Below the pieces are notes generated by a model. It searched no databases, was not told where the DNA came from, and worked only from the letters and a program-made list of their open reading frames with translations. This document shows positions 11,297 through 38,155 of a DNA stretch of 64,000 nucleotides, one piece after another. Source of the stretch: Desulfosudaceae bacterium (GTDB lineage Bacteria > Desulfobacterota > Desulfobacteria > Desulfobacterales > Desulfosudaceae); NCBI GenBank assembly GCA_963674745.2, contig CAXXDV010000001.1, positions 2,336,001-2,400,000 on the forward strand, given 5' to 3'. The position numbers and the translations under genes were made by a program. Position 1 is the stretch's first letter; every line of letters starts with the position of its first letter.

Positions 11297-11318
11297 GCTA
11301 AATGTTGCACAGCGGGTA

Positions 11319-12512: not shown

Positions 12513-12547
12513 GTCGGTCGACTTATCCGGTTTAAAGGGTTGATTTT

Positions 12548-15156: not shown

Positions 15157-15189
15157 TCACATCAAAGCGGTTTTTACTGGCTGTAAACT

Positions 15190-16329: not shown

Positions 16330-16398
16330 CGGTGAACATGGCTGTTTTTTTGATCCCTCTGCCGGACAGGTGGCGGGAACGGATCCGATGGGGGTGTA

Positions 16399-17274
16399 AT
16401 GGTGGTAAACCAGATCACTGAACGGTCCCGGACAAGTGCCGGGGCGGATTGCAGTGTCCTGATCGCCACTTATAACCGGCCCGGTACACTCAAACTGCTG
16501 TTAACGGCACTGAATATCCAGACCGTAAAGCGATTTGAAGTTCTGATCTGTGACGACGGGTCAGGACCTGAGACGGCGGAGATGATCACGTCAATCCGCC
16601 AGACCCTTGACTTTAATGTCCGGTATATCCGGCATGAAGACCAGGGATTCCGCAAGGCCATGATCCTCAACCGGGGTATTCTGGCATCCGGCACGGATTA
16701 CCTGCTTTTCCTCGATGATGACTGCATTCCCCACAGTCGCTATATTGAAAGCCATCTGAGGAAAAAAAGTCCGGGCACCCTTGTGTTCGGGAAGTTTGTC
16801 AGAATCCGGCCGGAGCTGATCGGTTTGATCACCGAAGACCTGATACAAAACAGGGGCATGGAGAAAAAGCCGTTTTTTACGCCGGGAAAAAAGTTCGGCC
16901 TGGTGATGAACCGGTTACGGTTTTACAGGCACCTGTTGCAGAAGAATTCTTTACGGCCAAAACTGTATGGTGCGAATTTCGCCGTGGACAAGCCCTCCCT
17001 GTTTAAGGTGAACGGTTTTAACGAGGCCTTCGAAGGCTGGGGTTATGAGGACAATGAACTGCGATTACGCCTGGTCAACAGCGGCATCAGAATGCGGGAA
17101 GCCATTACAGAAGCCATTGTTTTTCATCTCGTGCTTCAGGAACACAGAAAATCCTGCCAATATGATTCGGGACGCCTCAACAAGGACCTGTTTCTTCAGC
17201 AAAAAAATGAGCAATGGGCGTTGCGCGGCCTTCGTCAGCACAAACAGGCAGTAAAAGAACAGGAAACGATTTGA
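16399..17274 (+). CDS. GT2 glycosyltransferase (GT7-like C-terminal motif)
   Basis: IATYNRP, CDDGS, GFRKA, FLDDDCIP, VNGFNEAFEGWGYED. Confidence 0.92.
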   Translation: MVVNQITERSRTSAGADCSVLIATYNRPGTLKLLLTALNIQTVKRFEVLICDDGSGPETAEMITSIRQTLDFNVRYIRHEDQGFRKAMILNRGILASGTDYLLFLDDDCIPHSRYIESHLRKKSPGTLVFGKFVRIRPELIGLITEDLIQNRGMEKKPFFTPGKKFGLVMNRLRFYRHLLQKNSLRPKLYGANFAVDKPSLFKVNGFNEAFEGWGYEDNELRLRLVNSGIRMREAITEAIVFHLVLQEHRKSCQYDSGRLNKDLFLQQKNEQWALRGLRQHKQAVKEQETI

Positions 17275-17313
17275 TAAGAACATCATGCGTTATTGAAAAG
17301 AGCCTTACCGATC

Positions 17314-18360
17314 ATGACAATTAAACCGGAGAAAATGGTTGTCTTCTGCCCGAACTGGGTTGGTGACGTGGTCATGGCCACCCCGGTCTTTGACTGCCTG
17401 CGTCAGAATTATGCGCAGGCACACATAACGGGTGTGATCCGGAAATATGCCGCCGGCGTGATCAAGGACGGCCCCTGGTTTGATGATATTATTGAGCTTG
17501 ATGAGGATAAAACCCCTGGCGGCTTTATGGCCGGTGTCCGCGACGTCAGAACCGCCCGGCCGGATATGGCCATTGTCCTGCCCAACTCGTTCCGATCCTC
17601 CCTGATTGCTTTTCTGGGCGGGGCGAAAAAACGGTACGGCTATAAAAGGGCTTTACGGTCTTTTCTGTTGAGCGGCGGTCCCAGGCCATTGAAGGCGGGG
17701 CATGACATCAAGCCGGTGCCCATGGCTGAATATTATATGGCGGTCTGCCGCTATCTCAATCTTAACCTGCCGGAAAAAACACGACCGGAACTGTATTTTT
17801 CCGAATCAATCCGGGAAAAAGGAGAGTCGCTTTTTGAAAAGTATCATATTCAACCGGGTGAGATGTTGATCGGCTTGAATCCCGGCGCGAAGTTCGGCGC
17901 CTCAAAATGCTGGCCGCCGGAATATTTCGCCAGATTGGCGGAAGGGATCAGTAAAAAATGGGCTGGCCGGATCCTGCTGCTGGTCGGGCCCGGGGAAGAT
18001 GAAATCGCAGCCTCAATCATCAAGTCCAGCAGTGCGGAGATTATCAATACCGGTCCCGACAAAGTGGATCTTGAACTGTTAAAGTATGTGATCAGCCGGC
18101 TGGATCTTCTGGTAACCAATGACACCGGCCCCCGGCATTACGGGGTGGCCTATGACATTCCCACGGTGGTGATCATGGGGCCGACCAATCCCGACTATAC
18201 GGCCGCCAATCTTGATAAAACCGTTGTCCTGCGTAAAATCCTGGACTGCTCCCCCTGCCATGAAAAAACATGCCCGCTGGGTCATCATCAATGCATGACC
18301 CGGATCATGCCGGAAGAAGCCCTGGCGGCGTCTGTTCAACTTTTGGCCAGCCTGCGCTGA
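17314..18360 (+). CDS. waaF: ADP-heptose:LPS heptosyltransferase II (GT9)
   Basis: PNWVGDVVMATP, LPNSFRS, NPGAKFGASKCWP, VTNDTGPRH, GPT, CSPCHEKTCPLGHHQCM. Confidence 0.9.
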   Translation: MTIKPEKMVVFCPNWVGDVVMATPVFDCLRQNYAQAHITGVIRKYAAGVIKDGPWFDDIIELDEDKTPGGFMAGVRDVRTARPDMAIVLPNSFRSSLIAFLGGAKKRYGYKRALRSFLLSGGPRPLKAGHDIKPVPMAEYYMAVCRYLNLNLPEKTRPELYFSESIREKGESLFEKYHIQPGEMLIGLNPGAKFGASKCWPPEYFARLAEGISKKWAGRILLLVGPGEDEIAASIIKSSSAEIINTGPDKVDLELLKYVISRLDLLVTNDTGPRHYGVAYDIPTVVIMGPTNPDYTAANLDKTVVLRKILDCSPCHEKTCPLGHHQCMTRIMPEEALAASVQLLASLR

Positions 18361-19592: not shown

Positions 19593-20708
19593 TTATGGCT
19601 TTATGACCTGAAAGAGCTTCTGTTTGACATCTTCTGCGGTAATGGCGTTCAGGCAGGCCAGGTTTTTGCCCGGGCATTTGCGTTTATAACATGGGGCACA
19701 ATCAAGGGGCTTTTTGACGATCAGGTGTTCACTGCCAAAAGGTGCGGTAAGCGAAGGGTCGGTCGGACCGAAGATGGTTACATAATGCGTTCCAACCGCG
19801 GCGGCGATATGGGCGGAGCCGCAATCAGGTCCGACCGCGGCTTCGGCCTGCTGTAAAACCGCTGCCAGTTCCGGCAGCGACGTCTGCCCGACCAGGTTGA
19901 TCAGGCGGGCGTTACTGATCTCATGCTCAAGGTCGCAGGCCATTTGATATTTTGCCCCGGTGTCGACCATGACCATATTTAAGGATGTTTCCTGGAGAAG
20001 GTCACGAATTAAGTCCGCGTATCCTTTAAAATGCCATTCCTTTGAAACCCAGCTTGAACCGAGAACGACGGCCATGAAGGGCGGCTTCAATTTTGGCAGC
20101 ACCTTCTCCGCATTGGATGAAAGCGCGTTTTTTGAAAAACCGAAATCAAGCGCCTGGGATTTGAAAAGTTCCCGGGACCGGGACGGGTCAAATGCCGTAT
20201 GACAGCCCAGAAGTTCCGTAAATTTCAGGTAATGAAAGATTTTGGGGTATGCCTCATCCATGCGGGGGATATGGATATTGTTAAACAGCCAGTTCCCCTC
20301 TTTGGCGTTTGCCCGATGAAACCCGATCCGACAGGCGGCGCCGGTAACAAATGAAAAAAATCCGCTTTTCAGGTGACGCTGTAGATCAAGCACACAGTCA
20401 AAAGGCCTTTTCCTCAGCTCATAAAGGATACCTGTTAACCCGCCCTGTTGCCAGTTGGCCCGGTTAAACACCAGGATCTCATCGATAAGCGGGTGGACCG
20501 TTACGATCCCCTCGCATTTGGGCTCTATCAGCCAGGTAATGGTGGATTCCGGAAATCGATTTTTAATCAGTGAAACCAGACACAGCCCCCGGGTCACATC
20601 ACCCAGGGACCCCATGAGGATGATCAGAAAAGACGGTGCTTCAGGCAATTGCAGGCCGTCTCCGGCGCGTGATTCGTCTATATGTGTTGATGGTTTGATT
20701 CCGGTCAT
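19593..20708 (-). CDS. GT9 heptosyltransferase family protein
   Basis: MGSLGDV, LDLQRHLKSG, GSSWVSKEW, VGPDCGSAHIAAAVG, FGPT, CAPCYKRKC. Confidence 0.9.
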   Translation of the reverse strand: MTGIKPSTHIDESRAGDGLQLPEAPSFLIILMGSLGDVTRGLCLVSLIKNRFPESTITWLIEPKCEGIVTVHPLIDEILVFNRANWQQGGLTGILYELRKRPFDCVLDLQRHLKSGFFSFVTGAACRIGFHRANAKEGNWLFNNIHIPRMDEAYPKIFHYLKFTELLGCHTAFDPSRSRELFKSQALDFGFSKNALSSNAEKVLPKLKPPFMAVVLGSSWVSKEWHFKGYADLIRDLLQETSLNMVMVDTGAKYQMACDLEHEISNARLINLVGQTSLPELAAVLQQAEAAVGPDCGSAHIAAAVGTHYVTIFGPTDPSLTAPFGSEHLIVKKPLDCAPCYKRKCPGKNLACLNAITAEDVKQKLFQVIKP

Positions 20709-20916: not shown

Positions 20917-22407
20917 ATGATTCCTCAGTTATATTCAGCTAAATGGGAAAACTTGAAAAAAGGTGAGCCTGATCCGGAGGCGATAGGTCACCTGGCACGC
21001 CAGATCGCCCTGTCTTTTATGGACGCCTGTTTGTATTGCGACCGGTATGAACATACCTGTATCCAGCTGTTATGTGAGATGGCCACCGCCTTTGAGGCGG
21101 ACAGCGGATTGAACGCCAAGGCCTCATCAGCGCTTTTTAATATTGTTGTTGAAGGCCTTTGTGACGAGTTCGAGGACATGCAGGTGGAAATATACGACCG
21201 GGTCATGTGCCAGATCATTTCTTTCTGCCGGAACATTCCCCAGGGACAGGACCTGGATAAAACACTTTCCCGTTTTGGCTTTGGTTCTTCTGAGAGTCTC
21301 ATTGGCCGTGCTGCCGGCATGCGCAAACATTTTTTCATTCAAGAAGATATCGAGAAACCGGGAAAAATTATTTTTCTTTCCCGGGTGACCTTTGGCGCGG
21401 ACATCGCGGTTACCAGCGTGCTGATACAGCGGTTTGCCGACGCTTTTCCCGGGGCGGAACTGGTCTTGCTCGGCAATGGCAAGTTAAATGGCCTGTTCGG
21501 CGGACATGAAAAGCTGCGGATTCGAGAGCTTCATTATCCCCGCCGGGGAGATCTGCTGGCCCGGTTTTCGGCCTGGTTTTCCACCCTGGAAGCCATCCGG
21601 GAAGAAACGGCGGAAATCGGCCACAGGTTTCTGGTAATTGACCCGGATTCACGCTTGTCCCAGCTGGGTATCCTGCCGGTGACGGATACCGGGCGGTATT
21701 TTTTCTTTAACAGCCGGTTTAACGGCAGCAGTCCTTACCGCTTGTCCATGTCGGAGCTGGCCAATGAATGGGCCAATCGTATTCTGCCCGAGTCCGGTTT
21801 TTATCATCCCGGGGCCTGGATCGATGACACCTCGAAGGAAACTGCCGGGAGTTTAATTAAAGCGTTGCGCCGTTTTTCAGAACGTATTGTAACCGTCAAT
21901 CTGGGTGTGGGCGGAAACAGTCGGAAGCGGCTGGATGATGATTTTGAGCTCAGGCTGCTGGCATCGCTATTGTCTGAAGAAAACACTTCCGTGGTCCTGG
22001 ATTGCGGGGCCGATGACGAAGAAAAAAAGCGGGCCGAAAAACTGCTTGCGGCCCTGGGCGAACAGGGGGTTGCAACCGCCGAGGCTGATTTGAGCGGCTC
22101 CCCGGTAACACTTTCCGGCCCCGGTATTATCAGTATTCTTTCCAGCATCGGTGAAATCGCGGCCGTAATTTCCGCCAGTGATGAGTTTATCGGGTATGAT
22201 TCGGCCTGCCAGCATATCGCGGCTGCCGCCGGCATCCCTTCCTGCACCGTATTTGCCGGCTCGAATAACCCCCGCTTCGTCAGGAGATGGCATGCCCGGG
22301 GACAGGCCGTCAGCCGTATTATCCATGTGGATAATTTGAGCCGGGACAAAATCTTCGATAACGCCGACATTATCGCACGTATCAATGCCGCCAGGGAACG
22401 GGCATGA
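20917..22407 (+). CDS. Divergent GT9-like glycosyltransferase with ~145-aa N-terminal domain
   Basis: SRVTFGADIAVTSV resembles the LGD motif, and FIGYDSACQHIAAAAGIP resembles GNDSG.MH.AAA. Confidence 0.7.
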   Translation: MIPQLYSAKWENLKKGEPDPEAIGHLARQIALSFMDACLYCDRYEHTCIQLLCEMATAFEADSGLNAKASSALFNIVVEGLCDEFEDMQVEIYDRVMCQIISFCRNIPQGQDLDKTLSRFGFGSSESLIGRAAGMRKHFFIQEDIEKPGKIIFLSRVTFGADIAVTSVLIQRFADAFPGAELVLLGNGKLNGLFGGHEKLRIRELHYPRRGDLLARFSAWFSTLEAIREETAEIGHRFLVIDPDSRLSQLGILPVTDTGRYFFFNSRFNGSSPYRLSMSELANEWANRILPESGFYHPGAWIDDTSKETAGSLIKALRRFSERIVTVNLGVGGNSRKRLDDDFELRLLASLLSEENTSVVLDCGADDEEKKRAEKLLAALGEQGVATAEADLSGSPVTLSGPGIISILSSIGEIAAVISASDEFIGYDSACQHIAAAAGIPSCTVFAGSNNPRFVRRWHARGQAVSRIIHVDNLSRDKIFDNADIIARINAARERA

Positions 22408-23921
22408 AAGTACTGTTTGTTTATCCCAATGCCGGTTCACAGCTTGGTTTTAATTATGGCCTGGCTCAGATGAGCGCCGTGTTGAAACAGGCCGGACACC
22501 AGGTAACACTCGTCCACCTGGCCGAAGAACTGGGGCCGCTGCCACAAGAGGCGCAGCTCCAGGCCATGGTCAAAGAATACGATCCCGGGCTGATCGGTTT
22601 TTCCGTGGTGACCAACCAGTGGCCCCTGGCCCGGCAAATCGCCGGATGGATCCGAAAGACCACAGACGTGCCCATTGTCTGCGGCGGTATTCATGCCACG
22701 GTGGCCGCCGACCAGATCCTTCGTTCGGGGGTGTTTGATTATGTACTGGTCGGAGAGTGCGATACCGCTCTTCTGGAATTCGTCAATATCATTGAGCAGG
22801 GGGAGGACCCTTCCGGCATCCGGAACCTGGGGTTTTTAAAAGACGGCACCGTCCGGATAAACCCGGTCCGGCCGTTTCCCGGCCTTGAAACGCTTCCCAT
22901 GAAGGACTACAGCCTTTTTGACTTTCAGAAGCTGATCGATGAAAAAAACGGCTGGGTCGGTCTGATGGCCTCGCGGGGCTGCCCTTTTCAGTGTACTTAC
23001 TGCTTTAATCATCTAATCGTGAAAAAATACCGGGCTGAGCTTGGCTGTAGTTTTTCGGGGCTGAATTATATCCGTCATGTCCCTGTTCCCGCCATGATCG
23101 CTGAGATCAGGTACCTGATTGAAAATTATAAAAACATTAAAATGTTCATCTTCGATGATGACCTTTTTACCTTTAATGCCGATTATCTGCTGGCGTTTTG
23201 TGAGGCTTATAAAAACGTCTGCCAGATCCCGTTTGTGGTCAATGCCCATGTTCACTTTTTCGACCGTAAGCGGGCAAAAGCGCTGGCCGAAGCCGGTTGC
23301 CGGATTGTCAAATTCGGCCTGGAAAGCGGCAGCCCCAGGGTGCGCAAAGAAATCATGCGCCGGCATACCAGCAACAAGGATATCGCCCAGGCCATTTCAT
23401 ACGCCAAGGACGAAGGCATGCACACCTCTTGTTTTGTCATGATCGGTCTGCCCGGAGAAACATCTGAAAACGTGATGGAAACCATTGACCTTCTGGCACA
23501 GGCAAAACCAGGACGGTTCCGCTGGACATTTTTTTACCCCTTTCCGGGAACAGAAGCTTACGCCATCAGCGAACGGGGCGGCTATATCGACTTTGAAAAA
23601 AAAGAACAACTGGTTAATTTTACCGACACGACCTGTCTCGACTTCGGTCCGGAACAGAACCTGTTCTTAAAAAAGGTCGGCCGGATTATGCCCTGGTTTG
23701 TTAACGCCCGTGCAAAAATGGACTGTTCGCAGGTTTACCGGCAGAACGTCGATGCGCTTCTGGCTCTGGACGAAGCCGCATGGGCGGCCGTTGCGGACGG
23801 CCTGGTTGAAGAGGATAAACAGCTTTCATCGCAGATGGTCGAAGCCGGGAAGACCCATTACGCCATCAAGTATAACCGCTTTATGGGCGTTATTTCGGAT
23901 TATTTCTTAGAAGAAGAATAA
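22404..23921 (+). CDS. B12-binding domain radical SAM protein
   Basis: N-terminal Rossmann-like B12 domain (GGIHAT, VGECD), SRGCPFQCTYC, DDDLF, GLESGS, MIGLPGET. ATGA overlap with the upstream gene. Confidence 0.93.
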   Translation: MKVLFVYPNAGSQLGFNYGLAQMSAVLKQAGHQVTLVHLAEELGPLPQEAQLQAMVKEYDPGLIGFSVVTNQWPLARQIAGWIRKTTDVPIVCGGIHATVAADQILRSGVFDYVLVGECDTALLEFVNIIEQGEDPSGIRNLGFLKDGTVRINPVRPFPGLETLPMKDYSLFDFQKLIDEKNGWVGLMASRGCPFQCTYCFNHLIVKKYRAELGCSFSGLNYIRHVPVPAMIAEIRYLIENYKNIKMFIFDDDLFTFNADYLLAFCEAYKNVCQIPFVVNAHVHFFDRKRAKALAEAGCRIVKFGLESGSPRVRKEIMRRHTSNKDIAQAISYAKDEGMHTSCFVMIGLPGETSENVMETIDLLAQAKPGRFRWTFFYPFPGTEAYAISERGGYIDFEKKEQLVNFTDTTCLDFGPEQNLFLKKVGRIMPWFVNARAKMDCSQVYRQNVDALLALDEAAWAAVADGLVEEDKQLSSQMVEAGKTHYAIKYNRFMGVISDYFLEEE

Positions 23922-25691: not shown

Positions 25692-26003
25692 AATATCCTC
25701 CCCGGCGGTTTTGTTATGCCAGCCGTTGTTTTTATTCTGTCTGTTGCTGTATCACTTTTTTCGATGTTCCCCCTGACTAATCATATCTGGGGGTAAAATC
25801 TGTTATGTTAATCCATAATTCTCCTTTGATGTCAATAAAAACTTTGATTACACACAGACCTCCCGTAACGCTTTTGATAAACCACCGGCCGGACCGGAGA
25901 TGTTGACATGACTGCCGGCACCGGATAAATTGAACCCTGAGCGGATTGACGTAAGGCGCGTCAATTTTAGCTGAGCGCTGAATGCGATTATGCGGATGAT
26001 TCC

Positions 26004-27485
26004 ATGAGACTGGCCCTGATTTTTAATCCCTTTAAATATAAAGTTCATGAAGAAAACCTGAGGATCGTGCAAAAATATTTCGGTCTGTTTCCCCCGTTGA
26101 GTATCTGCTGGGTGGCGGCCATTGCCCGGCAGGCGGGTCATGAGGTGACGATTATCGACGCCCGGACATTGAAACTGTCCAAAGAAGACGTGTTTGAGCG
26201 GCTGAAAATGTTCAAACCGGATATCATGGGCTTCATGATGACCACCTACATGTTTCAGGATACCCTGGAATGGATCCGTTATCTCAAAAAACGGCTGGAT
26301 ATCCCTGTATTGATCGGTGGCTATAATTTGAGGGTTTATCCGGAAGCATCACTCAGCCATCCTGAAATCGATTACGGGGTGGTGGAACACGCTTTGGAAA
26401 CCGTACCCAGTCTGTTTGCGGCCCTGGAAGGTACGGGAAACCTTGAGGATGTGCCGGGCCTGGTCTATAAAGAGGATGGTAAGATCATCATAAATCCACC
26501 AAATCCTGTCAGTTTTGAAGGTTTCCCCAATCCGGCCCGGGATCTGTTGCCGAACGACTTGTATGCTGAATTTCCGACGGAGAGAAAGAATTTCACCGTC
26601 ATGGTGACCAGCCTGGGCTGTCCTTACGGTTGCAGTTTTTGCGAGGCCGGCAGAACGGTTTATAATCCCAGAAGCCCTGTAACCGTCGTCAATGAAATGG
26701 AGGAGTGCTATACCCGGTACGGTGTCCGGGAAATCGACATCTTTGACTATTCCTTTACGGCGGATAAACAGCGCACGATTGACATCTGCCGGGAGATGAA
26801 AAATCGCGGCCTTGATATCCTGTGGGCCTGTCGCTCACGGATTGATATCGATCGGGAATTGCTGGAAGAGATGAAAAAAGCCGGCTGCGGCAGAATATAT
26901 TACGGCATTGAATCCGGTTGCCAGGAAATTTTAGACCGGGTCAATAAGGGGATTACGCTTGAACAGATCAAAGAGACCATCGATCATACCCGGAAGCTGG
27001 GCATGAAGGCGCTGGGATTTTTTCTTATCGGCGCGCCCGGTGAAACAAAGCAGACGGTCAGGCAGACCGTGAAGTTCGCCCGAACGCTTGATCTGGAGTA
27101 TGTTCAATTTTCCAAGTGCCTGGCCAAACCGCTGACGCCGCTATGGGAACAGATGAAACAGGAGACGGGCAAAGACTACTGGGAAGACTGGGTGCGCGGG
27201 CTGGAGGTGGATCGCCCCCTGCCGCGGCTATGGACGGATTTGACCGACGCGGAAATCGACCGCCTTGCCAAGTGGGCTTATGTCAAATATCACTCCCGGT
27301 TTTTGTTTCTTCTCCGCGCCACAATTCAGGTCAAGTCATTTTCGGAGTTTAAACGAAAATTTTTCGGGTTTTTGGAAATGGTTTTCAGCCAGGAAGATGT
27401 GTCCACAAGGGACGAGTCTTTTATCGCTTATAATGATAATTCCAGGCGGCTGGACTTTTACAAGAAGATTGCAAAATACAAATAG
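26004..27485 (+). CDS. B12-binding domain radical SAM protein
   Basis: FPPLS, B12-type N-terminal domain, TSLGCPYGCSFC, GIESG, IGAPGET. Confidence 0.93.
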   Translation: MRLALIFNPFKYKVHEENLRIVQKYFGLFPPLSICWVAAIARQAGHEVTIIDARTLKLSKEDVFERLKMFKPDIMGFMMTTYMFQDTLEWIRYLKKRLDIPVLIGGYNLRVYPEASLSHPEIDYGVVEHALETVPSLFAALEGTGNLEDVPGLVYKEDGKIIINPPNPVSFEGFPNPARDLLPNDLYAEFPTERKNFTVMVTSLGCPYGCSFCEAGRTVYNPRSPVTVVNEMEECYTRYGVREIDIFDYSFTADKQRTIDICREMKNRGLDILWACRSRIDIDRELLEEMKKAGCGRIYYGIESGCQEILDRVNKGITLEQIKETIDHTRKLGMKALGFFLIGAPGETKQTVRQTVKFARTLDLEYVQFSKCLAKPLTPLWEQMKQETGKDYWEDWVRGLEVDRPLPRLWTDLTDAEIDRLAKWAYVKYHSRFLFLLRATIQVKSFSEFKRKFFGFLEMVFSQEDVSTRDESFIAYNDNSRRLDFYKKIAKYK

Positions 27486-27494
27486 TTGACTTTT

Positions 27495-28994
27495 ATGCGG
27501 ATTACATTTGTACACCTGGGAAGAGAGCATCTGGGGATTGAATATCTTTCCAGTATTCTCAAACAGCAGGGCCATGACGTCGCCCTGGCCTATGACCCGG
27601 GCCTGTTCGGGCCGGAAGACAATGTCTTTTATATCCCGTTTCTGCAGAAACTGTTTGATCAACGGCAGCAGGTGGTCTCGACTGTCAGGTCCTCTGCGCC
27701 GGACGTGGTCGCCTTTACCGTATACACCGGAACCTACCAGTGGGCCTGTGGCATCGCCAGGGAAATCCGCCGACATCTGGATGTGCCGATTGTTTTCGGC
27801 GGCAGCCACGCCACACTTGTTCCAGAGGTGGTCATCAGCAATGATGAGATTGATTTCGTGATCGAGGGTGAGGGGTTTCATGCCTTTCCCCAGCTGATCG
27901 ACGCCCTGGCTTCGGGTGGTGACCGGCTGGATGAGGTGAACAATCTGTGGTTCAAACAAAACGGTTCCGTCAAACGGGGCCGCCTGGCGCCGCCGCTGGC
28001 GGATCTTGACCGGCTGCCCTTTCCCGACAAGACATTATTTGAAAACGATGTCAATTATATTGATGATTACGTGATTATCACCAGCCTGGGATGTGTCTTT
28101 AATTGCAGTTACTGCTGTGAAAGTTACCTCAACCGGCTTTATCAGCATAAATATTTTCGCCGCCGGAGCGTAAAGTCCGTTATTGATGAATTGATTGTCA
28201 TGAAAGCCAGATATCATTTTAAAGAAGTCATGTTTAACGACGCGCTTTTTTTTACAGACAAAGCCTGGCTCCGGGATCTGATAACCGAGTACAGGCGAGT
28301 GATTAATGTGCCCTTCCGGTGTTTCGGTAAGGTTTCTCATCTGGATGACGATATCTGTCGTTTGCTGAAAGCCGGCGGATGTTACTGTATCGAATTCGGT
28401 ATGCAGACCTGGAATGAACATTTGAAAAAAAAGGTGCTGCATCGCAATGAAACCAATGTCCGGGCGCTGGAAGCTTTCAAGCGCTGTGACAGGTTCGGGC
28501 TGCGATATGATATCGACCATATCTTCGGTCTGCCGGGCGAGACAACCCGGGACCATACTGATGGCCTTTATTTTTACAGCCAGCTTAAACTGTTAAATAG
28601 AATCAAATGCCACAATTTAACCTATTTCCCGAAGACGGCCATTACGCAATACGCCCTGGATCACCATTTGTTGGCAGAAGAAGAGATGACCAGGCTTGAA
28701 CAGGGTGACATCTCCGATTTTTTTCACGGTGACGCCATCAGGGACAGCACGCTGAAAACGGCCAAAGACGCCTTTTCAAAATGTTATAAATGGCTGCCGA
28801 TTATTCCAAAATTTATCATTCGGAGACTGATCCGAAGCGAGAATTGGAAGTGGTTTGGCGCCATACCCGGGCCGCTCATTATTCTCGGCCAGCTGCTGGT
28901 GGCCGTCAAAGGACGGGATTATCGTTACCTGATATATTTAAAATATTATCCGCTGAGGATCAGACAGTCGTTAAGGAGAATGCGGACCGGTTAG
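27495..28994 (+). CDS. B12-binding domain radical SAM protein
   Basis: HLGIEYLSS, GGSHATL, GEG, TSLGCVFNCSYC, FGMQT, FGLPGET. Confidence 0.93.
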   Translation: MRITFVHLGREHLGIEYLSSILKQQGHDVALAYDPGLFGPEDNVFYIPFLQKLFDQRQQVVSTVRSSAPDVVAFTVYTGTYQWACGIAREIRRHLDVPIVFGGSHATLVPEVVISNDEIDFVIEGEGFHAFPQLIDALASGGDRLDEVNNLWFKQNGSVKRGRLAPPLADLDRLPFPDKTLFENDVNYIDDYVIITSLGCVFNCSYCCESYLNRLYQHKYFRRRSVKSVIDELIVMKARYHFKEVMFNDALFFTDKAWLRDLITEYRRVINVPFRCFGKVSHLDDDICRLLKAGGCYCIEFGMQTWNEHLKKKVLHRNETNVRALEAFKRCDRFGLRYDIDHIFGLPGETTRDHTDGLYFYSQLKLLNRIKCHNLTYFPKTAITQYALDHHLLAEEEMTRLEQGDISDFFHGDAIRDSTLKTAKDAFSKCYKWLPIIPKFIIRRLIRSENWKWFGAIPGPLIILGQLLVAVKGRDYRYLIYLKYYPLRIRQSLRRMRTG

Positions 28995-29021
28995 CCGGTC
29001 TTCGTCTCTACTCAAACGTAA

Positions 29022-30008
29022 ATGAAACAAATGAATATGTTCAAACCTGCCATCGGCCTGTTGCAGGCGAAACTGCTCAAGCGCAAGAAACCGCTTGTCG
29101 TCGGTTGGGCCATAACGGATCAATGCAACAGAAAGTGCGCCTATTGCGCCATATGGCGGCGTCCTGAGAGGGACCTGCCTCTGGAGCAGGTTACCGCCAT
29201 TATTGATGACCTGGCCGAAGCAGGTGCCCTGAGGATTTCATTTACCGGCGGAGAGCCGCTGTTAAGACAGGACATGGGGGATATTATCAGCTATGCTCAT
29301 GAAAAGGGCATAGAAACAAAAATGAACTCCAACGGTTCGCTGGTGAAAGAGAAAATAGATGCGTTGCGCCACCTGGACCTGCTGACCTTGAGCCTGGACG
29401 GACCGATGGAAATTCATGACGCTATCCGCGGCCGGGGGGCTTTTGCCGACGTGCAGGCGGCTCTGCGGGCGGCGCGGGAACAGGGGGTTAAAACCAGCCT
29501 GGCCACGGTGTTGACGTCGACCAATCTTGACGCTGTCGACGCCATTCTCGATATTGCCCGTCAGGCGTCGTGCCGGGTCACGTTTCAGCCGGCAACGACA
29601 ATGCGCCTGGGCGGGCAGATTAAAAACGACCTGACACCGCCGGCAGGACCGTATCGGGAAACCCTGAATCATCTGATTATCAGGAAAAAAGCCGGAGATC
29701 AGCATATCGCCAATTCTGTTTCCGGATTAAGCCATCTTCAAAAATGGCCGGAACCAACCAGCATGGCATGTGCCAGCGGCTGGATCAGTTGCCGGATAGA
29801 ACCTGACGGGAGCGTCCTGTATTGCAGTCGGGAATCGTTTCCTTTTCAACCCGGCAATTGCGTTGAGGCGTCGTTTCAGGAAGCGTTTAATAAATTGCGG
29901 CCGGTGGTTTGCAATGATTGCTGGTGCGCCGCAAGGGTGGAGCTTAACCTGGCCTACGCGCTTAACCTGCCGGTGCTTTTAAACCTAGTAAACAACCGGG
30001 TTGACTAA
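29022..30008 (+). CDS. Radical SAM protein with C-terminal twitch/SPASM-like Cys cluster
   Basis: CNRKCAYC, FTGGEPLLR, SLDG, and C-terminal CASG...C.I.PDG.V.YC...CNDC.C. Confidence 0.9.
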   Translation: MKQMNMFKPAIGLLQAKLLKRKKPLVVGWAITDQCNRKCAYCAIWRRPERDLPLEQVTAIIDDLAEAGALRISFTGGEPLLRQDMGDIISYAHEKGIETKMNSNGSLVKEKIDALRHLDLLTLSLDGPMEIHDAIRGRGAFADVQAALRAAREQGVKTSLATVLTSTNLDAVDAILDIARQASCRVTFQPATTMRLGGQIKNDLTPPAGPYRETLNHLIIRKKAGDQHIANSVSGLSHLQKWPEPTSMACASGWISCRIEPDGSVLYCSRESFPFQPGNCVEASFQEAFNKLRPVVCNDCWCAARVELNLAYALNLPVLLNLVNNRVD

Positions 30009-30989
30009 TTGCCAAGTAACGTTATCAAAAAACTTCGTTTTGTGCTTCCGCTGGCGGTTTCATTTCTGATTCTTTTTCTGTTGTCCCTGAAAATAGATGT
30101 CGCGAAAATCGTAGATTCGCTGCGGGGGTGCGATCTGAGACTGGTTGGCCTGGCCGTGACCGTCTCCCTGTTTGTGAATATACTGGTTGGTGCCGAAAAA
30201 TGGCGTCAGATTCTGGCCGCCCTGGGCTGTTCCCTTTCTTTTCGGGAAACAATTTCCATTCGCACCGCCTGCATCCCGTTTAAAATTCTTTTACCGCTTA
30301 AGTCTTCAGAATTATTAAAAGCCGTGTACCTGGACAGGCGTCGGAGACTATCATTTGCCAGGGCCACCGGATCACTAATAATTGATAAGGCTCTAAATAT
30401 ATTGGTGATAATTCCAATAGCCGCAGTCGGTCTGACCATGGTGGATCTTCCCGTTTCCAGAAGTATGCTGTTTGCTCTGTTGTCCGTTATTCTGGTGTTG
30501 ATTCTGCTGACAGTTTATTCGGTTATGTTCAGGCAGGGGCTGATCAGCCTGGCTTCAAAAATACATTCCCGCCTGAACGGTTTTGCGGTTGACCTGCTAA
30601 GCGGTTTTGCCGAGATCGGACCGGGCCGGAAAACCATTCTGTTGTTTTTTTCTTTTATCTTTCAGTCTTCTGAATTTATAAATACGTTTATCCTTTTAAA
30701 AGCGGTCGGCGTTACGGTTCCGATTTATTATTTGATGGTTATCATTCCAGTGATTATGATTATCAACAACTTGCCGATTACAGCTCTCGGCCTGGGTACC
30801 CGGGAAATTGCCATCGTTTATTTTTTTTCGGCGTTCGGCCCGGCGGCCGCTCTCCTTAGTGCCGGTATTTTGGTCTCTCTGGTTGAATATGTTCTGCCGG
30901 TTTTAACCGGCCTGTTGTTTATGCGTTCTTTTCAAGCCTATTTTACAATTAAAAATGACGCACTTTTTACTGAAACGGCGGCAAAATGA
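30009..30989 (+). CDS. Flippase-like / lysylphosphatidylglycerol-synthase TM-domain protein
   Basis: About 8 TM segments, KWRQIL, LPLKSSELLKAVYL, LPITALGLGTRE. Confidence 0.82.
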   Translation: MPSNVIKKLRFVLPLAVSFLILFLLSLKIDVAKIVDSLRGCDLRLVGLAVTVSLFVNILVGAEKWRQILAALGCSLSFRETISIRTACIPFKILLPLKSSELLKAVYLDRRRRLSFARATGSLIIDKALNILVIIPIAAVGLTMVDLPVSRSMLFALLSVILVLILLTVYSVMFRQGLISLASKIHSRLNGFAVDLLSGFAEIGPGRKTILLFFSFIFQSSEFINTFILLKAVGVTVPIYYLMVIIPVIMIINNLPITALGLGTREIAIVYFFSAFGPAAALLSAGILVSLVEYVLPVLTGLLFMRSFQAYFTIKNDALFTETAAK

Positions 30990-32383
30990 AAATAGTTCTG
31001 GTTAACCCGCGTTCACGAAATCCCGAGGAGCTTCAGCAGAAATGTTTTGCGCCGGTTAACCTGCTTTACCTGGCCGCTTCGCTGCTGGAGAATAATTTTG
31101 AAGTGGATGTTGTGGACGCCAATGCTTACGGGTTGTCCGATAAGGCTGTGGCAGAACTGGTCGGGGGGAAAAAACCTGATTTGATCGGCGTCTCCTTGCT
31201 GTCTGAAACAATGCCGCGGACTTTTACCTTGAGTGAACGCCTTAAGCAGTCCTGCCCCCGGGCGACACTTCTGCTCGGCGGCCCACACGCCAACGCCATG
31301 CCGGAAGCGGTTTTGGAAGAATTTACCCATGTCGATCTGGTTTTGACAGGCGAATGCGAACAGCGCCTGGTGACACTTTGCCGGACAATTGAGCAAAACG
31401 GCAATCTCGGCCGTGTTCCGGGACTGTTTTACCGCCAGGAGAAAAGAGTCGTCGGCACAGAAGGGGATGATTCAATCAAAGCGCTGGACAGTCTGCCCGC
31501 CCCGGCGCGTCATCTCCTGTCGGACGCTTATCAATCCGACCGTTATTACATGATTCTTGAAAAAGAGCGGCCGGTGGAAACCCTGCTGACCAGCAGGGGC
31601 TGTCCCTTTCAATGCGCGTTCTGCAGTAACATTCCGGGGGCTTTCAGGGCCAGGTCACCGGAAAATGTGGTGGCGGAAATCGTCGAGCGGTATACGGCCG
31701 GGATAACCAATTTTGATATTGCTGACGCCAATTTTACACACGACCCCGATCGGGCGATGCGGATTTTTGATTTGATCATACGGGAGAAGCTCGATATTTC
31801 TTTCCGGTTTAAGAGCCGGACAACGGTAATCCGTGAAGAACTGATGGATAAAGCCCGGCGGGCAGGTGCTTATCTGGTCTCCATGGGCATGGAATCCGGA
31901 TCGCAGGAGATCCTGCGGCGTATGAACAAAAAAACACGGCTCCAAGCGAATGTGAAGGCTTGTGAAACCGTGTTAAAGGCAGGCCTGAAGTTGAACACCG
32001 GCTGGATCATCGGTTTTCCGGGGGAGACACCAGAGACGATACAAGAGACAGTAAGGTTGATCGTGAATGTAAAACCGACAACCGCTAATATTCTGCGGTT
32101 GATACCTTATCCGGGCACACAGGTGTACGAAGAAGCCCGGGCTGAGAACCGCCTGGTCGGCGACTGGTCGGCCAACCGGACTTTTACACCCTGGATAAAA
32201 CTGCCCTGGATAGAATCTCTTTTTGACCTTGAAAAACAAACTCAGCAGGCCATTAACCGGGTGTATTTCCGGCCTCATTACGTATTTTTATTTGCAAATG
32301 AGATTTTAAAGAATGCCAACAGCATGCTGGCCAGGTATGCCATTCAGGAGGCGGGTAAAGCCCTCGGCAGCGTGTTTCGTTGA
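30986..32383 (+). CDS. B12-binding domain radical SAM protein
   Basis: LLYLAASL, GGPHAN, TGECE, TSRGCPFQCAFC, GMESGS, IGFPGET, PYPGT. Confidence 0.93.
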   Translation: MKIVLVNPRSRNPEELQQKCFAPVNLLYLAASLLENNFEVDVVDANAYGLSDKAVAELVGGKKPDLIGVSLLSETMPRTFTLSERLKQSCPRATLLLGGPHANAMPEAVLEEFTHVDLVLTGECEQRLVTLCRTIEQNGNLGRVPGLFYRQEKRVVGTEGDDSIKALDSLPAPARHLLSDAYQSDRYYMILEKERPVETLLTSRGCPFQCAFCSNIPGAFRARSPENVVAEIVERYTAGITNFDIADANFTHDPDRAMRIFDLIIREKLDISFRFKSRTTVIREELMDKARRAGAYLVSMGMESGSQEILRRMNKKTRLQANVKACETVLKAGLKLNTGWIIGFPGETPETIQETVRLIVNVKPTTANILRLIPYPGTQVYEEARAENRLVGDWSANRTFTPWIKLPWIESLFDLEKQTQQAINRVYFRPHYVFLFANEILKNANSMLARYAIQEAGKALGSVFR

Positions 32384-32438
32384 AAATTACCGGGGTGGGG
32401 CACTTTTAAAAAAAACAAGAACAGGCAGAAATTCAGAC

Positions 32439-34136
32439 ATGATTACCAATGCGACTTTAAAATCACGCATCGTGCCGGTATTTGTACTGTCGGTTGTGTG
32501 TCTGGCGCTTTTTTCTAACACCTTCACCAACGAATTGGTCTGGGATGACCCGGAAATTATCACCGAGAACGTTTATATCCGTGACTGTAAAAACATCTTT
32601 CTTTTTTTTACCCCTCATTATTGGAACGAATTGCATCCAGATCCAAGTCTATACCGACCATTGCGTACCATATCTTTTACCCTTGATCACGCGCTTTGGG
32701 GATTAAACCCGACCGGGTATCATATCACCAATGTTTTACTACATGTGGCAAACGTTTTGCTTGTTTTTTACCTGACGACTATTATCACGAAAACGCGCAA
32801 TGCCGGGTCTTCGGCCGGGCGCTCCGCACAAAAGGGCTTCCTTAGCCCGGCTTTTTTAACAGCCCTGTTGTTTGCCGCTCATCCGATTCATACGGAATCG
32901 ATCAATTTTGTCAAGAATCGTTCCGACTTGATGGCGTTTCTGTTTTTTTTCTTATCGGCACTGCTGTTTATAAAATCATTTTCAGCAGCCGGCCGTAAGT
33001 CCCGAGGGATACGCATTGTAGGCGCCTGGCTGTTGTTTGTCCCGGCGGTGTTGTCAAAGGAAATAGCTCTGACCCTGCCCGGGGTGTTGGTGTTATACGC
33101 CGTCTGCTTTTTGCCACGCCCGGACCGGAGAACGGCGTTGGCCTGGATTGTTCCCTACGGTCTGATGATTCTGATATTCTTCTGGACCATTCAGACCTTT
33201 ATTGCATCTGTCGGCCCGCTCCCTGCCGGCCCCCCCATGCCTCGAGGGGTCGGCCAGCATCTACTGACGGTCGTAAAGACCACGGGGATTTATTTTAAGT
33301 TGCTGGTATTGCCCTTCCCGCTTAGCGCCGACCGGGCGTTTATCGTTCCGACCGGCGTGTCCAGCCCTGCCGTCCTGGCGTCCCTGCTGGCGGTCTTGTT
33401 TTTGCTGATCGTTGCCGCCCGTACTTACCGGCGGGCGCCGATTGTATGCTTTGCCATCGGCTGGATCTTATTGACCCTGGTGCCTGTAAGCAATTTGGTG
33501 TTTCTGGTGTCCCGGCCCATTGCCGAACAGCGCCTGTATCTCCCTTCGTTCGGTTTTTGTCTGCTGATTGGTTATGGAATTGAGCGGTTGGCCTGTTTCG
33601 GGCCCCAAAAAGGGGGGCGTCCCTGGCCGATTCTCGCAGGCATTGCACTGACTGTGAGTATCGTCGCGTTATACGCTGTTGCTACCGTTCAGCGGAATTT
33701 TCAGTGGCGGAGCAATGTCGCTTTTTGCGCCAGCACTGTGGCTGCCAATCCGTTCAGCATCAGGATGCGATACAATTACGGCAATGCTTTGAGCGATATC
33801 GGGGCATATGAAGAAGCCATCAGACAGTACCAAACCGCGCTACATATGAAATCGGACTATCTGGAGGCACATTACAATCTGGGTGTCACCTATTATAAGA
33901 TCGGACACCACGATAAGGCTGTCCATCATTACCGGGCGGTGCTGGCGCTGGAACCGGATAATATCGATGCCCTGAACAATATGGGCGTCGCTTTTTATGA
34001 CAGCGGTCGCCTGAAAGAGGCCCTTGAATGTTTTCGGGAAGTGCTCAGGCTGTCACCTGACGATGTCAAGGCTGAACGAAACATGAAAGATGTTCTGGCA
34101 GACCTGGACCGTTTGGAGACGTCTGCCGAACCGTAA
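32439..34136 (+). CDS. TMTC-like GT-C membrane glycosyltransferase with C-terminal TPRs
   Basis: VWDD, YRPL, YHITNVLLH, HPIHTE..NRSD, LSKE, AEQRLYLPS, plus three TPR repeats (YNYGNAL, HYNLGV, LNNMGV). Confidence 0.85.
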   Translation: MITNATLKSRIVPVFVLSVVCLALFSNTFTNELVWDDPEIITENVYIRDCKNIFLFFTPHYWNELHPDPSLYRPLRTISFTLDHALWGLNPTGYHITNVLLHVANVLLVFYLTTIITKTRNAGSSAGRSAQKGFLSPAFLTALLFAAHPIHTESINFVKNRSDLMAFLFFFLSALLFIKSFSAAGRKSRGIRIVGAWLLFVPAVLSKEIALTLPGVLVLYAVCFLPRPDRRTALAWIVPYGLMILIFFWTIQTFIASVGPLPAGPPMPRGVGQHLLTVVKTTGIYFKLLVLPFPLSADRAFIVPTGVSSPAVLASLLAVLFLLIVAARTYRRAPIVCFAIGWILLTLVPVSNLVFLVSRPIAEQRLYLPSFGFCLLIGYGIERLACFGPQKGGRPWPILAGIALTVSIVALYAVATVQRNFQWRSNVAFCASTVAANPFSIRMRYNYGNALSDIGAYEEAIRQYQTALHMKSDYLEAHYNLGVTYYKIGHHDKAVHHYRAVLALEPDNIDALNNMGVAFYDSGRLKEALECFREVLRLSPDDVKAERNMKDVLADLDRLETSAEP

Positions 34137-34218: not shown

Positions 34219-34803
34219 TTATGAAAACAACGGCTGCAGGGCCATGGCAAAAGCCATTTCGCCTTCAATCTGCAGTTTGCCGCTCATGAACATCTGAATA
34301 GGTGTGTCCTGACGGGCTGTCAGGGCCCTGGCGTCCTCCATTGCCAGTTTGAGCGTGACTGCCGGCTGCGGGGCGCCGTTGAATGTGGCCGTAATTTCAG
34401 CTTCCGAGCCGTCCGGCTGTGCCAGCTTGAAAACAGCGGTTCCCTTAAGCCCTGCCAGAACACCATACTGCTGACGGGAAGCCTGTCCGCCGGAGATCTG
34501 GCCCTGCATTCCCAGCAGCATGTCGATATTTTTCATGTCTGCCAGTATGGCCATGCTTTCTACCGGGATGGACAGGAGAACCATGGGGTTTTCAATATCG
34601 CCTTCCTTGACGTCAAACGTCTGGCCGTCCTTGATGGTATAGCTGTAGCGGTTTCCCGAAGCATCCACGGTCAGGGTCAATGTCGTACCGGCCAGCGCTT
34701 CGTCCGGACCGTTTAAGGCAATAAACTGCCGGGCCAGCTTGGGAATAAACTCGGTTAACAGTTCGGCGACATCAACGGTAATGGTAAAGGTTTTTTCTGC
34801 CAT
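34219..34803 (-). CDS. SCP2 sterol/lipid-binding domain protein
   Basis: C-terminal PIQMFMSGKLQIEGEMAFAMAL SCP2 signature. The N-terminal half is also SCP2-like. GGAGG RBS before ATG 34803. Confidence 0.8.
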   Translation of the reverse strand: MAEKTFTITVDVAELLTEFIPKLARQFIALNGPDEALAGTTLTLTVDASGNRYSYTIKDGQTFDVKEGDIENPMVLLSIPVESMAILADMKNIDMLLGMQGQISGGQASRQQYGVLAGLKGTAVFKLAQPDGSEAEITATFNGAPQPAVTLKLAMEDARALTARQDTPIQMFMSGKLQIEGEMAFAMALQPLFS

Positions 34804-34820
34804 GACTTTCCTCCGATTGC

Positions 34821-35300
34821 TCAAGAGACACCGCGTCCCAGAATTTTTGTCATGATTTCCAGAGAAAGCTGTTCCGCGTCGTGTTGGATGGTCTTTTTAG
34901 CCGTTGCCACCTGGGCTTTGACCTCGTTCTGGGTGTTTTCCTTGAGGTCTGTTATGGTTTTCCGGGCTGTATCGACAACGTCTTTTGCCTGGTCGTTGGC
35001 TACGGTTTCCAGTTCGCTTTTCAAGGTCTGGCCTTCCTGCCGGGCGGAAGCTTCTTTTTCCTTCAGTTGTGCCATCAAATCCGTTGCTTTTTTCTGAGCG
35101 GTCTTGATGTCACTGTCCAGCTCGTTCAGATGGCCTTCTCGTTTGCGAATGGTATCGTTCAGGGGACGAAACATCAACCGGTTTAAAATCATCACAAAAA
35201 TCAGAAAAGACACCAGAATCACAACAAGCGTTTCATTGATTGTGATCATACCGTTGGTGTAGGCGACCGAGAAGATATCGTTGGAGTATAAAATTTCCAC
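34821..35300 (-). CDS. atpF: ATP synthase F0 subunit b/b'
   Basis: INETL...FLIF...LNRLMFRPL...KRE, then a charged coiled coil ending KILGR. Confidence 0.88.
   Translation of the reverse strand: MEILYSNDIFSVAYTNGMITINETLVVILVSFLIFVMILNRLMFRPLNDTIRKREGHLNELDSDIKTAQKKATDLMAQLKEKEASARQEGQTLKSELETVANDQAKDVVDTARKTITDLKENTQNEVKAQVATAKKTIQHDAEQLSLEIMTKILGRGVS

Positions 35301-37180: not shown

Positions 37181-38155
<975 letters not shown>

Follow-up and report, generated by a model that had tools for sequence, protein, structure and literature searches.

In the Hpn module of hopanoid synthesis, a GT2-family glycosyltransferase (HpnI) puts an amino sugar on a lipid, HpnJ reworks the sugar while it is bound to the lipid, and HpnL is a member of the LPG_synthase_TM family. 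Tailoring of a lipid-linked sugar donor is also known from ArnD. To our knowledge, no characterised glycosylation system includes radical chemistry on a lipid-carried sugar. Three-component glycosylation systems consist of a synthase that puts the sugar on a lipid carrier, a flippase and a C-fold glycosyltransferase (GT-C), and the account in PMC11127046 from which this description is taken also names DprE1/E2 and the ORF13 epimerases as precedents for tailoring on the lipid-linked donor before it is flipped. Here we analyse a 64,000-nucleotide stretch of DNA, the window, from the genome of a Desulfosudaceae bacterium (contig CAXXDV010000001.1, positions 2,336,001 to 2,400,000). It contains a predicted operon of six genes at 26004-34136, encoding four radical S-adenosylmethionine (SAM) proteins, a flippase-like membrane protein and a predicted GT-C enzyme. 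The operon is real, conserved and uncharacterised. With a confidence that barely exceeds an even one, we infer that it is the tailoring and delivery part of a periplasmic (extracytoplasmic) glycosylation system of the three-component type, in which the radical SAM enzymes tailor a lipid-linked sugar.

All six genes are on the plus strand and closely packed, as the original prediction had stated, and with the last gene starting at 32439 the intergenic gaps are 0, 27, 0, -4 and 55 bp. The longest open reading frame (ORF) of the last gene begins at 32313; the start at 32439 is the likelier one, since its relatives, i.e., nearly all the full-length matches listed, align from residues 1-25 of the protein that begins there. 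The layout is as follows.

25903-25931, plus strand: promoter-like site TTGACA-17-TAAATT, located about 73 bp before the first gene, a pattern match at 10 of 12 consensus positions
26004-27485, plus strand: B12rSAM_1, B12-binding radical SAM protein (Pfam B12-binding 62.5 bits, Radical_SAM 84.2 bits; CPYGCSFC at residue 206)
27486-28994, plus strand: B12rSAM_2, B12-binding radical SAM protein (Pfam B12-binding 59.3 bits, Radical_SAM 45.8 bits; CVFNCSYC at residue 203)
29022-30008, plus strand: twitch-type radical SAM protein (Radical_SAM 98.2 bits; SPASM, PF13186, 20.0 bits with a cut-off of 21.5)
30009-30989, plus strand: flippase-like membrane protein of the LPG_synthase_TM (MprF flippase domain) family (PF03706, 119.7 bits with a cut-off of 33.4)
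30986-32383, plus strand: B12rSAM_3, B12-binding radical SAM protein (Pfam B12-binding 60.7 bits, Radical_SAM 83.7 bits)
32439-34136 (long form from 32313), plus strand: predicted GT-C-fold membrane glycosyltransferase with C-terminal tetratricopeptide repeats (TPR), called from AlphaFold2, Foldseek, conserved residues and the TPR matches in Pfam

A terminator scan 3' of 34136 gave no clear terminator.

The gene set is present in order in five other genomes of the same family (G001, G002, G003, G005 and G008), where B12rSAM_1, B12rSAM_2, the twitch gene, the flippase-like gene and B12rSAM_3 succeed one another and one or two GT-C/TPR genes adjoin them. The twitch orthologues in these genomes, three of which belong to other genera, are 53-69% identical to that of the window. 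In G003 the GT-C slot is taken by a different protein with a PMT_2 (ArnT-like) domain and TPR, and G011 has a twitch fragment of 104 residues. The set recurs, rearranged, in contigs of Omnitrophota and Planctomycetota and in metagenomes. All six gene types lie within 10 kb, in a different order, in a metagenome-assembled genome (MAG) of Planctomycetota (locus L014), and two Omnitrophota loci (L012 and L013) carry partial sets at contig ends. Conservation is uneven among the members: the identity to the L014 proteins is 73-74% for B12rSAM_1, 58% for B12rSAM_3, 49-50% for the twitch protein, 38-39% for B12rSAM_2, 39% for the GT-C protein and 26% for the flippase-like protein. Judged from its retention in five other genomes of the family and its recurrence in other phyla, the arrangement is not a matter of chance, and the earlier expectation that the linkage is conserved is borne out both within the family and across phyla. 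Two distant twitch-like genes, one in a UbiA/B12 cluster (L006, G017 contig 40) and one in a haem (Ahb-type) cluster (L007, G004), were rejected as not orthologous.

The most conserved and most constant member of the set is B12rSAM_1, which is 61-81% identical outside the genus of the window and 73-75% identical in the copies from Omnitrophota and Planctomycetota. It has matches in 735 database clusters at E <= 1e-100. Among the matches listed are 119 relatives, all at least 64% identical, with source names from Thermodesulfobacteriota, Omnitrophota, Elusimicrobiota and one Bathyarchaeia MAG, and with protein names that are generic or likely wrong ('YgiQ', 'BchE-like cyclase', 'anaerobic Mg-protoporphyrin cyclase'). 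In an even sample of the phylum, orthologues with at least 62% identity occur in 6 of 400 other genomes, so that the distribution is patchy. Several unusual relatives were seen in passing: an orthologue fused to HEAT repeats (L060:10001-12241, 746 aa), directly followed by a 3087-aa open frame of no known nature (L060:12242-21505); a 973-aa orthologue (P0272); and, adjoining a 46% homologue on a contig that bears the label of a Methanosarcinales MAG, a protein of 1014 aa that combines a B12-binding domain with two radical SAM stretches and a SPASM domain (L016:3-3047).

Both PF02310 and PF04055 score above cut-off in the proteins that start at 26004, 27486 and 30986 and in a fourth protein, encoded from 22404, and each of the five radical SAM proteins of the region has one CxxxCxxC motif. 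The four proteins have the domain composition of class B (B12-binding) radical SAM enzymes, from which cobalamin use is predicted; a B12-binding domain is no proof of B12 use, since AprD4 has been reported not to use cobalamin. The Pfam matches agree with the original prediction in its domain calls, i.e., three B12-binding radical SAM proteins, a twitch protein and a flippase-like protein, and no member falls in a characterised equivalog family, every NCBIfam equivalog match being far below its cut-off. The best match of B12rSAM_1 is HpnJ (159.6 bits, cut-off 577.6) and that of B12rSAM_3 is BchE (180 bits, cut-off 481), and the other best matches are to ApyD (102.4 bits, cut-off 750) and to the PTO1314 family (117.4 bits, cut-off 306). 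The curated cut-offs for HpnJ, BchE, HpnR, PhpK, BzaD, ApyD and the ladderane-type lipid protein are reached by none of the proteins. The relatives with solved structures are remote (AprD4, TokK, OxsB, SkfB, viperin and BlsE), the nearest one to B12rSAM_1 being AprD4 (6fd2, E 7e-25). A role in hopanoid synthesis is disfavoured: the genome, which is 99.96% complete, has no squalene-hopene cyclase domain (PF13243, 0 matches) and no protein at the level of HpnJ, from which it follows that the cluster is not part of an Hpn module.

In the twitch protein the cysteines C35, C39, C42, C250, C268, C297 and C300 are invariant among 74 relatives, and conservation reaches at least 90% at G263 and C302. 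The stretch C250-x12-G263-x4-C268 corresponds to the motif CX9-15GX4C, to which the extra cysteines C297 and C300 are added. A full SPASM domain is defined by seven cysteines and by CX2CX5CX3C; the domain in the protein at 29022 is twitch-like rather than full SPASM, because the complete CX2CX5CX3C is lacking and PF13186 stays under its cut-off. The AlphaFold2 model of the protein has a predicted local distance difference test score (pLDDT) of 95.0, and its best fold match is the sugar decarboxylase BlsE (7vob, TM 0.69 both ways); this match is only a lead, since SuiB, PqqE and SkfB are practically tied with it. The protein at 30009 scores 59.5 bits with TIGR00374 (cut-off 43.2) and has seven hydrophobic segments. 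It is a member of the LPG_synthase_TM family by its Pfam score, and flipping is its putative function.

The fold matches to the peptide maturases SuiB, PqqE and SkfB, together with weak NCBIfam matches to ApyD and to the rSAM_ocin_1 family, would accord with a quite different role, in which the substrate is a ribosomally synthesised and post-translationally modified peptide (RiPP) and the enzymes are its SPASM-type maturase and B12 radical SAM C-methyltransferases. A cluster of this kind should encode a precursor peptide, and none was found: no gap within the operon exceeds 55 bp, the 312 bp in front of it contain no convincing peptide gene, and in 33 loci every small-ORF family conserved in at least five of them lay within a large gene in another frame, so that no conserved stand-alone small ORF is left as a candidate. 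No protease, transporter or RiPP recognition element gene accompanies the set, and its context consists of glycan genes. The original prediction had likewise seen no precursor peptide and had judged a RiPP less likely, and it is supported in this by a context of sugar and envelope genes. We give next to no credence to maturation of a RiPP, and this reading is disfavoured.

For the last protein, Pfam identifies TPR families only, at residues ~470-600 of the long ORF. The membrane part has no useful Pfam match, neither TMTC_DUF1736 nor PMT_2 matches the protein in Pfam (TMTC_DUF1736 not even at E <= 10), and a sequence search with the whole protein against solved structures gives TPR proteins only. 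The AlphaFold2 model of residues 1-433 has a mean pLDDT of 94.5 and about 11 long helices, and its top Foldseek matches in the PDB are Pmt4, ArnT, STT3/AglB, AftB and AftD, at probability 1.00 and TM-scores of about 0.45-0.5, so that the Foldseek comparison proposed together with the original prediction places GT-C folds on top. In an alignment of 108 sequences (107 database matches and the window protein), the residues D36, D37, H148, P149, E153, R161, K207, E363 and R419 are at least 90% conserved, D36 and D37 being the aspartates of a VWDD motif. By its conserved residues, the quality of the model and the Foldseek matches, the last protein is a GT-C-fold enzyme; a conserved acidic motif in the first external loop is typical of such enzymes, and D36 and D37 would correspond to it. 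Its family is huge, with 69,287 representative clusters at E <= 0.001 in an exhaustive profile-free search.

An Atlas feature search with this protein returned clusters that carry PMT_2 and, at rank 21, a TMTC_DUF1736 cluster. The conserved stretch LLFAxHPxHTE matches a segment of human TMTC3 shown in PMC7801869. For TMTC proteins the same source describes a DD motif and an 11-helix topology with the N terminus inside and the C terminus outside, which the about 11 long helices of the model would fit in number. The earlier designation of the protein as a TMTC-like glycosyltransferase is fair for its architecture and motifs, i.e., the GT-C fold, the DD motif and the TPR, and does not extend to TMTC membership at the level of Pfam, where TMTC_DUF1736 and PMT_2 are both missing.

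In other lineages B12rSAM_1 keeps company with sugar and envelope genes. The sample consists of 26 loci from outside the genus of the window, each with a B12rSAM_1 orthologue of at least 60% identity, and the loci are 2.1-21.5 kb long. Two further loci, L059 and L080, were left out of the count for want of a callable B12rSAM_1 ORF under simple ORF picking, which also missed the twitch gene of L001, found by tblastn. The gene types occur as follows.

GT-C (TPR type, PMT_2 or AftD-like): 13 of 26 loci
B12rSAM_2-type: 12 of 26 loci
Twitch: 10 of 26 loci
GT9 (heptosyltransferase-like): 9 of 26 loci
GT2 similar to polyprenyl-phosphate-sugar synthases: 7 of 26 loci
Flippase-like: 6 of 26 loci

At least one of GT-C, GT9 and GT2 is present in 18 of the 26 loci, and absences mean little, since many of the loci are short contigs. 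A GT9 protein of about 402 aa is encoded directly upstream of B12rSAM_1 in seven loci (L014, L052, L053, L054, L057, L058 and L064). Further neighbours are GT4, DegT aminotransferase and carbamoyltransferase genes, sugar epimerases, polysaccharide deacetylase, Wzx- and Wzy-type genes and GDSL/SGNH hydrolases; a GDSL/SGNH hydrolase domain is also fused to B12rSAM_2 in the Planctomycetota MAG (L014:13387-15894, 835 aa). A gene for a DUF362-ferredoxin protein is found near B12rSAM_1 in L047 and L079, and genes similar to the one for the fourth B12-binding radical SAM protein (B12rSAM_0) stand beside the gene set in L013, L049 and L061. In one Thermodesulfobacteriota genome, a run of GT9, GT2 and B12rSAM_1 has PilX-like and PilY1-like type IV pilus genes immediately upstream (L079:3429-7845), a single case that may hint at a pilin as acceptor.

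A closer tie between B12rSAM_1 and the loading of a lipid carrier is seen in gene fusions. G155 encodes a 43-44% B12rSAM_1 homologue with a C-terminal GT2 domain (a 738-aa ORF in a 744-aa open frame), and G122 has a similar homologue of 43-44% identity with a C-terminal domain (756-aa open frame). The GT2 domain of G155 has its best NCBIfam matches, all below cut-off, to PpgS, AglJ, PgfS and ArnC, all of them enzymes with a polyprenyl phosphate as sugar acceptor, and stand-alone GT2 genes also match dolichyl-phosphate hexose transferase in NCBIfam. In L079 and L083, GT2 genes overlap or directly precede B12rSAM_1 orthologues of 64-65% identity; the G155 domain is 34% identical to these GT2 proteins and belongs to the same subfamily. 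Like B12rSAM_1 itself, the GT2-fused homologue has HpnJ as its best NCBIfam match, and its locus also contains a polysaccharide deacetylase gene and an LPG_synthase_TM gene. A homologue search aimed at longer, fused forms gave 3 matches only, and the fusions of 738-756 aa are not among the 120 near-length matches listed, all of which consist of B12-binding and radical SAM domains only. By its domain composition, the fusion would tie the first radical enzyme to the loading of sugar on a lipid carrier, with the order of the two actions left unfixed. A GT2 gene resembling polyprenyl-phosphate-sugar synthases is adjacent to or fused with B12rSAM_1 in L047, L049, L051, L054, L058, L079, L083 and L084.

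With the order unfixed, the radical enzymes could instead act in the cytoplasm on a soluble nucleotide sugar, e.g., a nucleoside-diphosphate sugar or ADP-heptose, which GT9 or GT2 enzymes would then install, while the flippase-like and GT-C proteins serve a loosely linked envelope step. This would suit the GT9 genes directly preceding B12rSAM_1 in seven loci, and also the nearest solved relatives, AprD4 for B12rSAM_1 and BlsE and DesII for the twitch protein, all of which act on soluble sugar derivatives. Yet the flippase-like and GT-C genes are tightly coupled in the operon, with junctions of 0 and -4 bp, and recur with the set; HpnJ, the best family match, weak as it is, has been proposed to act on a lipid-bound sugar; and GT-C enzymes use lipid-linked donors, as is generally known and as the account of three-component systems in PMC11127046 has it. 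Tailoring of a nucleotide sugar therefore seems unlikely to us.

The combination of B12 radical SAM and GT-C/TPR genes also recurs within the genome itself, which is 5.5 Mb long and has 53 matches to the B12-binding domain. Of its 15 GT-C/TPR paralogues, nine have a B12-radical SAM gene no more than 10 kb away, and these nine are spread over four separate loci. When the genes are placed at random the mean is 1.7 and none of 2000 placements reaches 9, tandem copies inflating this test. Three further loci, apart from the operon, thus combine the two gene types, and the largest of them is a 40-kb island on contig 3 (2,205,000-2,245,000; L075, L076). The radical SAM genes of the island are one of the SPASM type and three of the B12 type; besides a GDSL hydrolase it also encodes a Dpy19-like GT-C and has at least six genes of the GT-C/TPR type. 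It has an Arn-like set, consisting of an epimerase/dehydratase, a DegT aminotransferase, an acetyltransferase and a small GT2 with DUF2304, and also a sulfotransferase, two LPG_synthase_TM genes and Alg13/14-like genes.

These observations can be brought together in a scheme of four steps. In the first, on the inner side of the membrane, polyprenyl phosphate would be loaded with a sugar by an enzyme encoded outside the operon, of the kind represented by the GT2 that is fused to or overlaps B12rSAM_1 in relatives. In the second, the three B12-binding enzymes and the twitch enzyme would rework the lipid-linked sugar without oxygen, candidate reactions being C-methylation, rearrangement or ring contraction, oxidation, and decarboxylation. 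In the third, the LPG_synthase_TM protein would move the product to the periplasmic face, and in the fourth the GT-C/TPR enzyme would transfer the sugar to an acceptor in the envelope, most likely the lipopolysaccharide (LPS) core made by the neighbouring locus and otherwise a secreted protein. The original prediction had proposed a pathway that modifies a sugar or lipid headgroup, flips it and transfers it to a protein. The modify-flip-transfer part gains from the GT2 that is fused to or overlaps the first B12 enzyme in relatives, and the protein acceptor is an analogy drawn from TPR and TMTC proteins. The six genes do not form a self-contained pathway, since the enzyme that would load the lipid carrier is not encoded in the operon.

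The acceptor is best considered together with the genes upstream of the operon, which are the following.

6387-18360, no strand assigned: LPS-core locus (Pfam; WaaF equivalog)
19593-20708, minus strand: GT9 (heptosyltransferase-like; PF01075, 124.1 bits) at the end of the LPS-core locus, probably associated with the operon
20917-23921, plus strand: pair of a GT9-like protein and B12rSAM_0, with reading frames overlapping by 4 bp (Pfam), probably associated with the operon

The LPS-core locus encodes three kinases of the 3-deoxy-D-manno-octulosonic acid (Kdo)/WaaP type, an LpxL-type acyltransferase, a Wzy_C/WaaL-like ligase, three GT2 and one GT4 protein, a sulfotransferase, and a WaaF that scores 176.1 bits with the equivalog, above the cut-off of 134.6. 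The three kinases and the sulfotransferase suggest a core that may be heavily phosphorylated or sulfated. The GT9 at 19593-20708 reaches 124.5 bits with the HepI model (cut-off 185.3); it clusters with the ~402-aa GT9 proteins found upstream of B12rSAM_1 elsewhere, but is just 25% identical to them, and the closer copy in the genome is on contig 3, at 34%. This orthologue (2,455,000-2,470,000; L078) is flanked by a PMT_2 GT-C on one side and by TPR membrane proteins on the other. Of the solved GT9-type enzymes, it is WaaF that the GT9 proteins resemble. As a separate observation, the L078 orthologue is next to a VKOR-DsbA fusion, and no radical SAM gene is found there. The GT9-like protein at 20917-22407 has 496 aa, of which the C-terminal third matches GT9 and the first ~340 residues have neither a Pfam family nor a solved relative; its partner B12rSAM_0 (22404-23921) is the fourth B12-binding radical SAM protein. 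The pair is kept in G002, a genome of the same genus, and is separated from the operon by two decarboxylase-complex genes on the other strand. The whole arrangement from LPS locus to operon is kept in G002 and not in G003, which means that the adjacency does not count as independent evidence.

The proximity of these genes raises the question whether the radical enzymes edit LPS directly. In that case they would act on lipid A-Kdo-heptose intermediates, for example as C-methylases or as oxygen-independent substitutes for the O2-dependent hydroxylases of lipid A or Kdo, and the GT-C protein would decorate the product in the periplasm in the manner of ArnT. The operon abuts a locus with WaaF above cut-off, an LpxL-type acyltransferase and Kdo kinases, GT9 genes accompany B12rSAM_1 in 9 of the 26 foreign loci, ArnT is among the best fold matches of the GT-C protein, and the protein in the same slot in G003 is a PMT_2/ArnT-like protein with TPR. 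The adjacency is, however, kept within the genus only, the annotated foreign loci contain no lipid A or Kdo genes, fifteen GT-C/TPR paralogues are many for the decoration of LPS alone, and a TPR domain is not known as a feature of ArnT. We regard direct editing as improbable.

When, instead, a tailored lipid-linked sugar is delivered by the GT-C/TPR enzyme, the LPS core as its acceptor is favoured by the GT9 link and by the adjacency, and a protein by the analogy with TPR and TMTC proteins and by the many paralogues. The earlier choice of a protein is weakened by the operon abutting the LPS-core locus and by GT9 being present in 9 of the 26 loci, and a glycan, be it the LPS core or a different one, has at least the same likelihood. 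A bolder version of the scheme holds that the B12-radical SAM enzymes form a widespread, highly conserved family whose C-C chemistry on a polyprenyl-phosphate sugar, either C-methylation or ring contraction, gives a branched or carbacyclic sugar, which the TMTC-like GT-C attaches to envelope proteins. If true, it would amount to protein O-glycosylation in anaerobic bacteria with a new class of sugar, a prokaryotic counterpart of the eukaryotic TMTC pathway; we consider it doubtful.

Downstream of the operon, 34219-34824 (minus strand) encodes a protein with an SCP2 lipid-carrier domain, convergent with the GT-C gene, at the same position in G002 and with a 61% identical paralogue on contig 3. 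Further on, 37181-38146 (minus strand) encodes an ATP synthase c subunit in which four hairpins are fused, next to a second set of Fo genes, and with the atp proteins of the window as queries no ATP synthase genes were found in G002 between the SCP2 gene and MTHFR.

A last alternative places the chemistry on the tails of membrane lipids, the enzymes cross-linking, cyclising or methylating core lipid chains as Gms, Grs and Gmm do. Of these modifiers of archaeal glycerol dialkyl glycerol tetraethers (GDGT), Gms belongs to the SPASM/twitch class of radical SAM enzymes, Grs and Gmm to the B12 class. The GDGT enzyme GDGT-MAS is among the fold matches of the twitch protein, at rank 43, and the SCP2 gene lies just downstream on the other strand. 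According to PMC11214058, moreover, the same pairing of enzyme classes acts on lipids and has bacterial homologues in Planctomycetes and candidate phyla. Chemistry of this kind is nevertheless disfavoured and in our estimate highly unlikely, for sugar genes are neighbours in 18 of the 26 loci, a homologue is fused to GT2, and among the unassigned ORFs of L014 that were run against Pfam, none has a radical SAM domain that would make it a candidate for Tes or Mss.

Against the scheme of a tailored lipid-linked sugar a number of points must be set. The fusion with GT2 is equally compatible with a radical enzyme that acts on the nucleotide sugar before transfer, and the fused protein is a 43-44% homologue and not an orthologue. 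Neither the operon of the window nor its copies in Desulfosudaceae encode a polyprenyl-phosphate-sugar synthase, and the case for the loading step thus comes from relatives and from genes at other places in the genome; in this respect the operon departs from three-component systems, where the synthase is encoded with the flippase and the GT-C. We know of no LPG_synthase_TM protein that has been shown to flip polyprenyl-phosphate sugars, and ArnE/F, which are known flippases, are also not of this family. Peptide-modifying SPASM enzymes match the fold of the twitch protein practically as well as the sugar enzyme BlsE does. Eight of the 26 foreign loci, most of them short contigs, have no glycosyltransferase. 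As to the acceptor, the LPS adjacency is confined to the genus of the window, and there are B12rSAM_1 homologues of 65% and 46% identity under the archaeal MAG source names Bathyarchaeia and Methanosarcinales, i.e., in organisms without LPS. Finally, the flippases described for three-component systems in PMC11127046 are of other families, e.g., GtrA.

If the scheme is correct, radical chemistry on a lipid carrier provides the sugars with which anaerobic bacteria from several phyla decorate their envelope. It would bear on how LPS or surface proteins are built in sulfate reducers, Omnitrophota and Planctomycetota, and would give a first function to a member of the very large GT-C/TPR family. 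B12rSAM_1 offers a sharply defined target, and its partners, i.e., the fused or adjacent GT2 and the DUF362-ferredoxin protein, suggest how the reaction may be reconstituted. In the full-text literature searched, supplements excluded, no paper came up that connects radical SAM enzymes with GT-C or three-component glycosylation.

The operon can now be compared with the systems that it resembles. As we know it, HpnI-J-K-L is probably the closest worked example of such chemistry on a lipid-bound sugar. The two have in common a B12 radical SAM protein, GT2 and LPG_synthase_TM, and HpnJ is the best NCBIfam match of B12rSAM_1; they differ in that B12rSAM_1 is far below the HpnJ cut-off, HpnL is not among the matches of the flippase-like protein and the Hpn module lacks a GT-C. 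With the archaeal GDGT set (Gms, Gmm and GrsA/B) the operon shares a twitch/SPASM gene clustered with B12 radical SAM genes in anaerobes; by the description in PMC11214058 the archaeal enzymes modify lipid tails and are clustered with tes or mss, whereas the partners of the operon are glycosyltransferases. Eukaryotic TMTC1-4 have, like the window protein, an N-terminal multi-helix GT-C domain, a DD after the first helix, a motif of the LLFAxHPxHTE type and C-terminal TPR, but the window protein lacks TMTC_DUF1736 and PMT_2, its TPR region is short and its family is very large. From three-component systems (GtrB/GtrA/Gtr*, ArnC/ArnEF/ArnT and, from PMC11127046, the pentofuranose systems with DPPR synthase, flippase and GT-C) the operon differs in its tailoring enzymes, all radical SAM proteins, of which three bind B12 by prediction and one is of the twitch type, in a candidate flippase of LPG_synthase_TM and not GtrA or SMR type, in a GT-C with TPR and in the lack of a synthase gene. 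What it shares with them is a GT-C together with a candidate flippase and, in its relatives, a GT2 synthase.

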